Part shown: positions 1,062 to 48,605 of the stretch, piece by piece
Position numbering within the stretch: position 1 is the first letter of the stretch
Layout of the letters: every line of letters begins with the position of its first letter
Assembly: GCF_057098645.1 (NCBI RefSeq)
Contig: NZ_CM169472.1
Direction: 5' to 3' (one strand)
DNA length: 64,000 nucleotides
Program-made: the position numbers and the translations under genes
Notes under the pieces: model-generated
What the model saw: the letters and a program-made list of their open reading frames with translations, nothing else
Told to the model about the DNA's origin: nothing
Databases searched by the model: none

Positions 1062-1073
1062 CACGCTACCGCC
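1062..1073 (-). promoter_or_regulatory. ops element (GGCGGTAGCGTG) in the wza leader, RfaH recruitment site within a JUMPstart region
   Basis: Minus-strand sequence reads GGCGGTAGCGTG about 180 nt upstream of the wza start; matches the ops consensus GGCGGTAGnnTG. Confidence 0.6.
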
Positions 1074-1541
1074 CCTGGCTTTTTAGCTACCAATACACTG
1101 ATTTAGCTTAATTTTTCAAACCCTCTCTGCATACAATCGTTGATGAGAAAGGGTTATTGCGGAAATTAACTTCCGAATATAAGGTGACATTATGGTAATT
1201 GAATATTGGCTCTCCAATAATGCAGGAGGAAGTGTTACAGCTAACGGAATAGCAGGCAAGGTAACAATTCGGCAATTGGCTATTTTTAAGAATTATATTA
1301 AGTGTCATTCAATATGGTTTTTAGGAGTTTCTTTAGGTTGACAATATTTAATATTGCGTCTCCACATGCGATATTTCTTAAATAATGTTTTATTATTACC
1401 ACTTTTAATTCAGGGATAATGTGAGGTTATTACCCTCAAATAATATGAGATAAATAGTGCTGCAACATTGCATTTTTGCCCCGATTTATCCATGATCGAA
1501 TTGTGACATTTGTCATACAACGAATAGGTTTTGTACTTACT

Positions 1542-16044: not shown

Positions 16045-16227
16045 AAGAAATCCTTTCTTAGAGAATTATTGAGGTCCGGTATCATACCGATTGCAATAAT
16101 GAAATAAGAGCAAACGAAGAAACTTTCAGAATTAGGCCCGGCGGCGCAGAAAATTTTGCTATTCGCCTCGCAAGAACGGAGAGCCGTCGATTGACACTAA
16201 GGGCGGAGTGACATAATTACAGGAGTG

Positions 16228-16375
16228 AGGGTTAGGGAGAAGTTTCCCCCTCCCCCTGGTGTTCTTAGTAAGCCTGGAAGCTAATCACTAAGAGTATCAC
16301 CAGTATGATGACGTGCTTCATCATAACCCTTTCCTTATTTAAAAGCCCTCTTCTCCGGGAGAGGGTTCCCCGTTT
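16228..16375 (+). ncRNA. sibA: Sib antitoxin sRNA, copy 1 (boundaries approximate)
   Basis: Starts just downstream of TTGACA...TAATTA; fully antisense to ibs ORF 1; ends at hairpin ccctcttctccgggagaggg plus T-run. Confidence 0.55.
16265..16324 (-). CDS. ibsA: Ibs-type hydrophobic toxin peptide, copy 1 (MMKHVIILVILLVISFQAY)
   Basis: 19-codon ORF with tandem ATG start and strongly hydrophobic sequence typical of Ibs toxins. Confidence 0.6.
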   Translation of the reverse strand: MMKHVIILVILLVISFQAY

Positions 16376-16556
16376 TAGCGTCCCGCTGAAATCGTCGGCT
16401 TACCTCCTTTCGCCCTGAATGCAGTCTATCGCTGACTTGCGGATAAAATAGTTTCAAGTGTGATTATTGCGTAACGACTCGCAAAGAATATTTGCTGGCA
16501 GGATCGCAGACTGCAAAGCCTGCAGATTGACAATCTTATCGTGAAGGCATACTTTC

Positions 16557-16703
16557 AGGAGTGAGGGTAGAGCGGGGTTTCCCCCGCCCTGGTAGTCTTA
16601 GTAAGCGGGGAAGCTTATGACTAAGAGCACCACGATGATGAGTAGCTTCATCATGACCCTTTCCTTATTTAAGGCCCCTTCCTCGGGAGGGGCTTTCCCG
16701 TTT
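16557..16703 (+). ncRNA. sibB: Sib antitoxin sRNA, copy 2 (boundaries approximate)
   Basis: Promoter TTGACA-N17-TACTTT; antisense to ibs ORF 2; terminator hairpin plus T-run. Confidence 0.55.
16598..16654 (-). CDS. ibsB: Ibs-type toxin peptide, copy 2 (MMKLLIIVVLLVISFPAY)
   Basis: 18-codon hydrophobic ORF antisense to Sib copy 2. Confidence 0.6.
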   Translation of the reverse strand: MMKLLIIVVLLVISFPAY

Positions 16704-16884
16704 CAGCGTCCCGCTGAAATCTTCGGCTTACCTCCTTTCGCCCTGTATGCAGTCTATCGCTGACTTGCGGATAAAATAGTTTCAAGTGTGATTATTGCGT
16801 AACGACTCGCAAAGAATATTTGCTGGCAGGATCGCAGACTGCAAAGCCTGCAGATTGACAATCTTATCGTGAAGGCATACTTTC

Positions 16885-17031
16885 AGGAGTGAGGGTAGAG
16901 CGGGGTTTCCCCCGCCCTGGTAGTCTTAGTATGCTGGGTAGCTAATCACTAAGAGCACCACGATGATGAGTATCTTCATCATGACCCTTTCCTTATTTAT
17001 GGCCCCTTCCTCGGGAGGGGCTTTCCCGTTT
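16885..17031 (+). ncRNA. Sib antitoxin sRNA, copy 3 (boundaries approximate)
   Basis: Third repeat of the promoter/sRNA/terminator block. Confidence 0.5.
16926..16982 (-). CDS. Ibs-type toxin peptide, copy 3 (MMKILIIVVLLVISYPAY)
   Basis: 18-codon hydrophobic ORF in the third repeat; two residue differences from copy 2. Confidence 0.55.
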   Translation of the reverse strand: MMKILIIVVLLVISYPAY

Positions 17032-30274: not shown

Positions 30275-30358
30275 TTAATTTCGATTATTTTTCCCGGATG
30301 GAAAATTCTTAGAAACCGATCACATACAGCTGCATTTATTAAGGTTATCATCCGTTTC

Positions 30359-30445
30359 GCTGAAAAACATAACCCATAAAATGCTAGCTGTACCAGGAAC
30401 CACCTCCTTAGCCTGTGTAATCTCCCTTACACGGGCTTATTTTTT
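30359..30445 (+). ncRNA. cyaR: CyaR (RyeE) Hfq-dependent sRNA
   Basis: gctgaaaaacataacccataaaatgctagctgtaccaggaaccacctccttagcctgtgtaatctcccttacacgggcttattttttt: CCUCCU anti-SD seed, then terminator hairpin gcctgtgtaa/ttacacgggc plus U-tract; CRP half-site-like TCACA upstream. Confidence 0.75.
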
Positions 30446-46404: not shown

Positions 46405-47205
46405 TCACCACCAGGCGTGGAAGTGGTGAACCGGACCAATACCGTGACCAACTTCCAGCGTGTCGGCCTGGGCTAACGCCGATGAAAGCCAGCTTTTTGC
46501 CTCCTGTACGGTGTCAGCCCAGTTTGTATGGCGCGGGCGTAGTGCAGCCAACGCCGCAGAGAGTGTACAACCAGTGCCGTGGGTGTTTTTGGTCATAATG
46601 CGCGGTGCGGTAAACCGTTGTTCACCCTCGCGGGTAAACAGCCAGTCCGGGCTTTGCTCATCATCCAGATGACCACCTTTCATTAGCACTGCGCCACAGC
46701 CCATCGCCAACAGCGATCGCCCTTGTTCCAGCATTTCCTGTTCGGTGCGCGCGTGTGGCGCGTCGAGCAAGGCGGCAGCTTCGGGCAAGTTTGGCGTTAT
46801 TAATGAAACCTGTGGCAATAATCGACTGCGCAGCGTAGCAACCGCCGAAGGTGAAAGCAGCGGGTCGCCGCTTTTTGCCAGCATAACGGTGTCGAGTACC
46901 ACGTTTTGGATCTGATAACGTTGCAACCGTTCTGCCACCGCTTCAACAATATCGGTTTCCGCCAGCATACCGATTTTAGTGGTATCGATTCGCACATCGC
47001 TGAACACCGAATCGAGCTGGGCGGCGACAAAATCAGGCTCAATGCGATACACCGACTGTACGCCACGGGTATTTTGCGCCACCAGTGCAGTAATAACTGA
47101 GCAACCATAAGCGCCAAGTGCCGAGAAGGTTTTAAGATCGGCCTGAATCCCCGCACCACCACTCGGATCAGTACCGGCAATCGTCAGAGCGTTAATTCGT
47201 TTCAT
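46405..47205 (-). CDS. thiD: Hydroxymethylpyrimidine/phosphomethylpyrimidine kinase
   Basis: 266-aa [30 protein letters not shown]... Confidence 0.9.
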
Positions 47206-47990
47206 GCCTGCACCTCCTGCGTCAATTGCCAGAGCGCATCAAGGAAATGTGGAACAAAACTGCCTGGCCCCTCGCTTCTGGCGACTGCGCGTTCTCCGGC
47301 TTGTTTCATCCAGTGACAGGCAGATGCGACATTTTCCAGCGTATCGCCTGGTAACGCACAGCAGGCAGCGACAACCGCCGATAATGCACAGCCAGTTCCT
47401 ACCACTTTGGTCATTAACGGATCACCACCGTGAATACCAATGATACGATGTCCATCGGTAACATAATCCATCTCGCCAGTGACCACGACGATTGCGCCAG
47501 TTTCCCGTGCCAGTGTTTGTGCAGCGGGTATCGCGTTAGCTGCGGCGTCAGTGGTATCCACTCCCCGTCCGCCATTAGCAATGCCAGCTAATGCCATGAT
47601 TTCCGAAGCATTACCACGTATCGCTGCCGGTTTAAAAGATAAAAGTTCATGACAAAAATGGCGGCGATAATCGAGCGCACCCACCGCTACTGGATCAAGC
47701 GTCCAGGGTGTTTGAGCGCTTTTTGCTTGCTCAACGGCAGCACGCATCGCCTGAGCGCGTGGCTGCGTCAGTGTGCCAACGTTAATCAACAAGGCACTGG
47801 CGATAGCCGCAAACTGACTGGCCTCTTCGGTTTCGATAACCATCGCTGGCGATGCACCGAGCGCCTGCAAGGTATTGGCGGTAAAGGTTTGCACCACATC
47901 ATTGGTCATGCAGTGCACAAGAGGGGAATGTTGGTGAAAAAGGTGTAACGCGTGCGCAGATTGCGCTGAACCCAGCAGGTCGACTTGCAT
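47202..47990 (-). CDS. thiM: Hydroxyethylthiazole kinase
   Basis: 262-aa ORF; start overlaps thiD. Confidence 0.9.
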
Positions 47991-47994
47991 AGTT

Positions 47995-48118
47995 TGCTCC
48001 TGCCATAACGTGAAGAAGCAATGACCTGGTGGTCCGTGACTTCCCTACGCTGGCATTATCCAGATCAGGTGATACGGGTATTTCTCAGCCTTCACGCAGA
48101 AGGGCACCCCGAGTCGTT
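47995..48118 (-). promoter_or_regulatory. TPP (THI-box) riboswitch in the thiM 5' leader
   Basis: Minus-strand leader reads ...ggggtgcccttctgcgtgaaggctgagaaatacccgtatcacctgatctggataatgccagcgtagggaa..., the conserved THI-element core (CUGAGA, ACCUGAUCUGGAUAAUGCCAGCG). Confidence 0.8.
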
Positions 48119-48212
48119 TGGTTGCGATGATAAATCGCAGAGGAGGATGGTAATGTCCAGCGCACGCGTTGTAAACGAGGAAAAACGGCAGTTTTACAAT
48201 CGCGTTAATAAA

Positions 48213-48485
48213 TTATTTGATATATGAATCCAGCACCTTCAGAACGACATCCAGATCTTCTTCACGTTTTAGCTCATCCCCCTGGTGAACGATGTGTTCC
48301 GTCAGATGACCTTTAATCACTTCCCGCATCAGACCGTTTACCGCGCCACGGATAGCAGCAATCTGTTGTAAAACTGCAGCGCATTCGTGCGGCTCGTCGA
48401 GCATTTTCTTGAGCGCCACGACCTGGCCCTGAATCTTACTGGCACGCGCTTTCAGTTTCTGTTTATCACGGATTGTATGAGACAT
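48213..48485 (-). CDS. rcnR: Ni/Co-responsive repressor RcnR (CsoR/RcnR family)
   Basis: 90-aa all-helical [24 protein letters not shown]... Confidence 0.9.
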
Positions 48486-48533
48486 GGCAACACCTGGTTA
48501 ACAAGAATATGAAAAATCATAGCACTATTAATC

Positions 48534-48568
48534 TACTGGGGGGTAGTATCAGGTACTGGGGGGGAGTA
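48534..48568. promoter_or_regulatory. Two tandem RcnR operators of TACT-G6/7-N-AGTA type in the rcnR-rcnA divergent promoter region
   Basis: tactggggggtagta (48534-48548) and tactgggggggagta (48554-48568). Confidence 0.7.
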
Positions 48569-48605
48569 GAATCAGATTGCCGAATTAATACTAAGAATTA
48601 TTATC

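Follow-up and report, generated by a model that had tools for sequence, protein, structure and literature searches.

A TPP riboswitch ahead of thiMD: aptamer match, alternative Shine-Dalgarno pairings and identity with the E. coli thiM leader

The DNA analysed here, a stretch of 64 kb referred to as the window, carries the thiamine genes thiM and thiD on its minus strand, and the leader preceding them raises the question of whether the operon is controlled by a riboswitch that senses thiamine pyrophosphate (TPP) and, if so, by which mechanism. The original prediction, made from the raw sequence, had placed a TPP riboswitch with a THI-box core at 47995-48118, directly upstream of thiMD, and had proposed translational control. 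Our analysis leads to the conclusion that the leader, from about 48140 to 47977 on the minus strand, is almost certainly the E. coli thiM TPP riboswitch, working as proposed. All defining traits of the TPP riboswitch family that are open to an in silico check were found in this leader, and nothing substantive speaks against this explanation.

Aptamer match and gene context

In a pattern search, the THI-box motif, CTGAGA(N12)ACCTGATCTGGATAATGCCAGCG, has a single occurrence in the window, at 48088..48048 on the minus strand, and none of 100 shuffles of the window that preserve dinucleotide composition contained it. The core that had been read on this strand is thus present and unique, and the sequence quoted for it, GGCTGAGAAATACCCGTATCACCTGATCTGGATAATGCCAGCGTAGGGAAG, is contained in the minus-strand reading of 48500..47700. 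An Rfam TPP scan had been suggested as a check on the original prediction, and it gave a significant match to RF00059, above the curated threshold (71.2 bits, with a gathering score of 54.3; E = 5.1e-12 for the entire 64-kb window, both strands). The match spans model positions 1-105 of 105, with high posterior probabilities along its whole length, and its sole departure from the Rfam consensus is a missing optional P3a hairpin, which corresponds to an 11-position deletion. Neither RF00059 nor a covariance model of our own detected a second TPP aptamer in the 64-kb window.

To place the secondary structure we used the residue numbering of the literature, in which nucleotide n corresponds to window position 48126-n. 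The consensus pairs of RF00059 mapped on the window are canonical in 21 of 23 cases, the two exceptions being the outermost P1 position and C24. The helices obtained are P1 (11-14/85-88), P2 (15-18/48-51), P3 (21-27/33-38, with C24 unpaired), P4 (57-60/79-82) and P5 (63-66/73-76), so that a three-way junction can be formed with standard pairs, in which P1 closes the two arms P2-P3 and P4-P5. Both ligand-contact sequences are exact in the window, namely UGAGA in J3-2, which forms the pyrimidine pocket, and ACCUGAUCUGGAUAAUGCCAGCG in the P4/P5 box of the pyrophosphate arm. The coordinates of these and all other features are collected in Table 1.

Table 1 Features of the thiM leader and operon in the window (nt, literature numbering; SD, Shine-Dalgarno; TSS, transcription start site)
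Feature	Position	Strand	Basis
Promoter-like site, -35 TTTACA, 17-nt spacer, -10 TACCAT	48147..48175	-	Consensus scan, 9/12; consensus match alone
Putative TSS	48140	-	Numbering of PMC5499598
Small 5'-terminal stem-loop UGCGAU-UUAUC-AUCGCA	48123..48139	-	ViennaRNA fold of 48140..48100, -8.9 kcal/mol
TPP aptamer (THI element) RF00059	48025..48121	-	Rfam match; identical 97 nt labelled 'TPP riboswitch' by PGAP in RefSeq
J3-2 pyrimidine pocket, U39-A44	48082..48087	-	Sequence agrees with residues named in PMC2018614
P4/P5/L5 THI-box core ACCUGAUCUGGAUAAUGCCAGCG, pyrophosphate-sensing arm	48048..48070	-	Motif search, consensus-pair mapping, P5 covariation
GAAG (nt 83-86), anti-anti-SD; part of the P1 3' strand with TPP	48040..48043	-	Free MFE; PMC1920254
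Linker / switching region (nt 88-105), including G100 and G101	48021..48038	-	PMC1920254; folding
Anti-SD CUUC (nt 108-111)	48015..48018	-	SD partner in the aptamer-enforced fold
SD GGAG (nt 126-129)	47997..48000	-	6 nt upstream of AUG
thiM start codon AUG	47988..47990	-	Minus-strand reading, gene call
GACCUG, thiM codons 3-5, predicted 3' arm of the outer helix enclosing SD/AUG	47977..47982	-	Aptamer-enforced MFE
Rho loading/termination zone: C-rich, G-poor tract 47948..47912 and codons 20-34, 47933..47889	47889..47948	-	Composition; PMC5499598
thiM, hydroxyethylthiazole kinase	47202..47990	-	TIGR00694, 336.4 bits (cut-off 256.4)
thiD, HMP/HMP-P kinase	46405..47205	-	TIGR00097, 362.6 bits (cut-off 204.95)

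Between the end of the RF00059 match and the thiM AUG on the same strand there are 34 nt, and the two genes that follow the match, also on this strand, were identified as thiM by TIGR00694 and thiD by TIGR00097, which bears out the position directly upstream of thiMD that had been claimed. The stop codon of thiM and the start codon of thiD overlap by 4 nt (ATGA). Upstream of the leader lies rcnR, on the same strand (NF011613, 197 bits), with rcnA divergent from it. A mechanically called open reading frame of 68 amino acids (48021-48227, plus strand) runs antisense over the riboswitch and the rcnR-thiM spacer, where RefSeq annotates nothing.

Further RNA elements were seen elsewhere in the window. 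Three tandem Sib antitoxin RNAs lie on the plus strand (16191-16339, 16527-16669 and 16855-16997; Rfam SIB_RNA, 141-145 bits each), so that three type I toxin-antitoxin modules of the Sib/Ibs kind follow one another at this locus; K-12 has two Sib RNAs here, sibA and sibB. The annotation of the Sib locus gives ibsA and two more Ibs toxins in many E. coli genomes, and two only in others; the best identity found for the 1-kb Sib stretch is 98.8%, with an exact match in 0 of 5426 E. coli genomes. Scores above the Rfam gathering score were also obtained for the CyaR sRNA (30357-30442, plus strand, 100.7 bits), for naRNA4, a nucleoid-associated RNA (40100-40170, minus strand, 64.5 bits), and for a JUMPstart element (1062-1100, minus strand, 57.3 bits), an element usually located ahead of polysaccharide gene clusters.

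Identity with the studied RNA, conservation and covariation

The residues named in two probing and fluorescence studies of the E. coli thiM RNA (PMC1920254 and PMC2018614) match in the window in 29 of 29 cases, the next best register reaching 14 of 29. They comprise G18, G19, C24, U39-A44, U46, A53, G60-U62, A69, A70, G72, U79, A84-U87, A96, A99, G100, G101, G126, G127 and G129, and include the J3-2 pocket, in which G40 forms hydrogen bonds and G42 and A43 stack on the ring of the ligand, as well as the tertiary contact between L5 and P3, in which A69 stacks on C24 (PMC2018614). The E. coli thiM RNA has a submicromolar KD for TPP, and its probing changes are TPP-dependent (PMC2018614, PMC1920254). 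Binding of TPP by the leader in the window can be expected on sequence grounds, as it is documented in the literature for an RNA of matching sequence. In many E. coli RefSeq chromosomes the 401-nt stretch 47900-48300 recurs with 100% identity, and an exact counterpart of the 220-nt leader 48180..47961 exists in one of them; the identical records carry a 97-nt feature, annotated by PGAP as 'TPP riboswitch', that coincides exactly with the Rfam coordinates and is flanked by rcnR and thiM.

Of 5426 complete E. coli genomes, 5424 contain the 144-nt leader, 4369 of them with an identity of at least 99%. For the 401-nt query 47900-48300, which includes the end of rcnR, approximately 700 of the 5426 E. 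coli genomes cover less than 80%, whereas only about 90 of the 5426 fall below 80% coverage with the 144-nt leader alone. This contrast indicates that, in a minority of strains, the part of the intergenic region next to rcnR varies or is missing, with the riboswitch retained. A few E. coli genomes match 47900-48300 at two or three places, and one match is plasmid-borne.

A degenerate THI-box pattern, applied to one genome per species, retrieved at least 120 loci. Among the matches listed, 23 have a ThiM homologue fewer than 130 nt downstream of the THI box; 14 of the 23 are enterobacterial and show a spacing of 55-74 nt, as in E. coli. In these 14 leaders and the window, the aptamer is invariant throughout, including P1, P2 and P3, which are absent from the search pattern. 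Across the same 15 thiM leaders, the TTCT block and the GGA of the SD are also invariant, and the C preceding TTCT is nearly so, with a variable, indel-rich linker around these conserved blocks, in which a hairpin is predicted in most cases. The thiM leader is better conserved than the flanking intergenic DNA.

Since the aptamer is invariant in the 15 thiM leaders, the wider set fetched with the pattern was used to analyse covariation. A covariance model was built from the 15 leaders, and 101 matches from 100 sources were aligned, giving 99 distinct rows. In this alignment, which was fitted to the model, the pair cells of the 99 distinct aptamers are standard in 93.9%, compared with 28-58% when the partners are slid by 1-3 columns, and 306 double-change cells were counted, compared with 97 ± 14 in column shuffles (0 of 500 shuffles reach 306). 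Covariation across the 99 aptamers is seen in all four P1 pairs, in the P3 pairs and in one P5 pair. The latter, in columns 114/125, is UA in 51 aptamers and CG in 48 and is never unpaired, in positions where the pattern allowed Y and R independently. Because the alignment follows the model and large parts of J3-2, P4 and P5 were predetermined by the fetch pattern, the informative positions are limited to P1, P3, one P2 pair and one P5 pair.

Transcript start and pairings of the expression platform

The published study of transcription at thiM counts from the TSS, with G142 in the ribosome-binding site and U152 in the AUG (PMC5499598). When A151 is set to 47990, nucleotide 1 falls on 48140 and G142 on 47999, which is a G inside the SD, and the -10 hexamer of the candidate promoter then ends 7 nt upstream of this start. 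From this agreement we infer the placement of the promoter and of the TSS. The small stem-loop at the 5' terminus, upstream of the aptamer, might act as an mRNA-stabilising 5' hairpin. The segment 48141-48213 (minus strand), which separates the rcnR stop at 48213 from the thiM promoter and leader, has no intrinsic-terminator-like site, and just a weak hairpin, without a U-run, is predicted in it (-13 kcal/mol). Because of this lack, some rcnR transcripts might read through into the thiM leader and carry the riboswitch internally. The supply of thiMD mRNA would then be weakly tied to the nickel/cobalt-responsive autoregulation of rcnR, and the riboswitch, together with Rho, would serve as an insulator. 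We regard such read-through as improbable, and the separate promoter-like site, which agrees with the published TSS, makes it unnecessary.

The switch was modelled by folding a 165-nt RNA with the aptamer helices enforced or unconstrained, for both the minimum free energy (MFE) structure and the ensemble. With the aptamer enforced, CUUC 108-111 pairs with the SD GGAG 126-129 in a hairpin that spans 105-132, which leaves the SD with an unpaired probability of 0.01, and CAGGUC 98-103 pairs with GACCUG 144-149 (codons 3-5), enclosing the AUG. In the unconstrained MFE structure, aptamer nucleotides 71-86 pair with 108-125; in the free ensemble, CUUC 108-111 pairs with GAAG 83-86 and the SD has an unpaired probability of 0.64. 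Folding of the leader, the other check suggested for the original prediction, thus recovers the alternative pairings of the SD. The pairings of SD, anti-SD and anti-anti-SD are predicted in silico to be mutually exclusive, in agreement with chemical and enzymatic probing of the E. coli RNA, in which nucleotides 71-86 of the TPP-free form pair with 108-125, the anti-SD being paired with 83-86, and protection of the SD depends on TPP (PMC1920254). Mutation of G100 and G101, in the linker, abolishes regulation (PMC1920254), and the expression platform also includes residues 151-172 in the count from the TSS, which correspond to window positions 47990..47969 (PMC5499598).

The aptamer-enforced state lies 6-9 kcal/mol above the free MFE, with a gap in ensemble energy of 7 kcal/mol, and this cost of the bound state is presumably paid by the ligand and the tertiary contacts. 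The unconstrained MFE was also tried as a test of structure, and gave -45.6 kcal/mol, which does not exceed the stability of shuffles (z = 0.22), in a fold that does not show the aptamer. We rejected this test for the leader, since an RNA that is bistable and stabilised by its ligand should not be conspicuous by its MFE.

These pairings also allow the interval of the original prediction to be judged. By and large its coordinates are correct, as all the aptamer helices (P1 begins at 48115) fall inside it together with linker, anti-SD and SD, but it slightly clips the 3' end of the expression platform. The interval ends 5 nt short of the thiM AUG, and the last pair of the SD-sequestering hairpin (nucleotide 132, at 47994) and the coding arm of the outer helix (47982..47977) lie outside it.

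Two-state equilibrium folding of the 14 orthologous leaders gave mixed results, with a large change in SD accessibility only in E. albertii and Superficieibacter. For several leaders of the Enterobacter kind, both ensembles have the SD predicted as paired or half-paired, with CC(U) of a linker hairpin as its partner and not CUUC. For this reason, the conservation of the mechanism is argued from the CUUCU and GGAG blocks instead. A long linker hairpin, for example CCUGUCCGG...CCGGGCAGG, was noted in leaders L026, L039, L070, L081, L068 and L066, which belong to Enterobacter spp., a Proteobacteria MAG (L070), Pseudescherichia, Pantoea and Serratia. The 5' arm of this hairpin and the start of the SD are predicted to form pairs, and the conserved CUUCU tract is placed in the loop. 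These leaders may therefore use an SD-sequestering helix other than that of E. coli, despite their identical aptamer.

Mode of control and comparison with known systems

In the mechanism that we favour, a three-way-junction aptamer (P1; P2-P3; P4-P5) would bind TPP. When TPP is scarce, nucleotides 71-86, including GAAG 83-86, would pair with the anti-SD tract (CUUC 108-111 and its neighbours), leaving the SD GGAG and the AUG free, so that thiM and thiD would be translated. In the bound state, P1, P4 and P5 would be locked, the released anti-SD would pair with the SD, and the outer helix would extend into codons 3-5, by which translation initiation would be blocked. In the account given in the literature, a C-rich rut region at codons ~17-30 is then exposed on the mRNA that is no longer translated, and Rho terminates transcription in codons 20-34, resulting in less thiMD mRNA. 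The aptamer match, the covariation, the gene context, the in silico pairings and the identity to the studied RNA were established in the present analysis. For the binding of TPP, the probing of both states and the dependence on Rho we draw on published work.

The part played by Rho deserves closer attention, as the regulatory output is not purely translational: Rho termination within thiM is a secondary effect, in which TPP-induced translational repression leads to Rho-dependent termination in codons 20-34, with a rut site at about nucleotide 200 and termination at nucleotides 231, 237 and 262 (PMC5499598). In the window, transcript nucleotides 193-229 (47948..47912) contain 36-44% C and 0-16% G in 25-nt windows, and this C-rich, G-poor tract is consistent, by its composition and position, with the published rut site. 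The presence of such a tract in early thiM, along with the observation that TPP reduces thiMD mRNA and that bicyclomycin abolishes the reduction (PMC5499598), would fit an alternative in which TPP acts chiefly on the mRNA, by directly promoting Rho termination or decay, with translation being secondary. However, a translational fusion of 6 codons is still repressed by TPP, whereas transcriptional fusions of 6 to 20 codons are unaffected; mutations in the ribosome-binding site or AUG reduce the mRNA by themselves; and a module of thiM codons 9-34 transfers Rho control to an unrelated riboswitch (PMC5499598). These fusion and mutation data indicate that the action of Rho is a consequence of translational repression, and a primary effect on the mRNA is very unlikely.

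A second alternative would be control of an intrinsic, Rho-independent terminator, the mode of action of many Gram-positive TPP riboswitches. The region 47900-48600 contains 0 sites with a terminator-like hairpin and U-run on either strand, which excludes an attenuation mechanism, and the segment between aptamer and AUG has just 34 nt, which are occupied by the SD and anti-SD, so that we give this possibility practically no weight. The translational control named in the original prediction, on the other hand, is upheld by the alternative pairings obtained by folding, by this lack of a terminator and by the identity with the probed E. coli RNA. That the motif is a chance or decayed THI box without a regulatory role has a negligible probability, given the E-value of 5e-12 with a score over the curated threshold, its recovery in 0 of 100 shuffles, the near-invariance of the element in 5424 E. 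coli genomes and 14 other enterobacterial species, and a sequence identical to that of an experimentally characterised RNA.

The E. coli thiM riboswitch was among the first riboswitches described, and is the source of aptamer crystal structures. It was reportedly described by Winkler, Nahvi & Breaker in 2002, and the crystal structures of its aptamer are said to be those of Serganov et al. (2006) and of Edwards & Ferre-D'Amare (2006). The element in the window is therefore already known, as a textbook riboswitch that is annotated automatically in RefSeq, and offers no new biology; its value is one of calibration, as the riboswitch, its strand, its operon and its mechanism were correctly named from raw sequence.

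The leader in the window and the E. coli thiM riboswitch have the same leader sequence, the same order rcnR-riboswitch-thiM-thiD and the same alternative pairings. The ThiM protein encoded in the window differs by about 2 residues (99.2% identity) from the ThiM of locus L001 of the THI-box pattern scan, which indicates a different strain. The other leaders of E. coli with a TPP riboswitch, those of thiC/thiCEFSGH and tbpA/thiBPQ, carry the same aptamer class and THI-box core as thiM, and are reported to be SD-sequestering platforms as well (PMC5234074, PMC11487190). A difference from the thiC and tbpA leaders is that the thiM aptamer has no P3a insertion, an optional element. The characterised TPP riboswitches of Bacillus subtilis control intrinsic terminators (PMC5499598), unlike the thiM leader, which is without one; the aptamer fold and the ligand are nevertheless common to thiM and the Gram-positive TPP riboswitches, such as the thi-box leaders of Bacillus.
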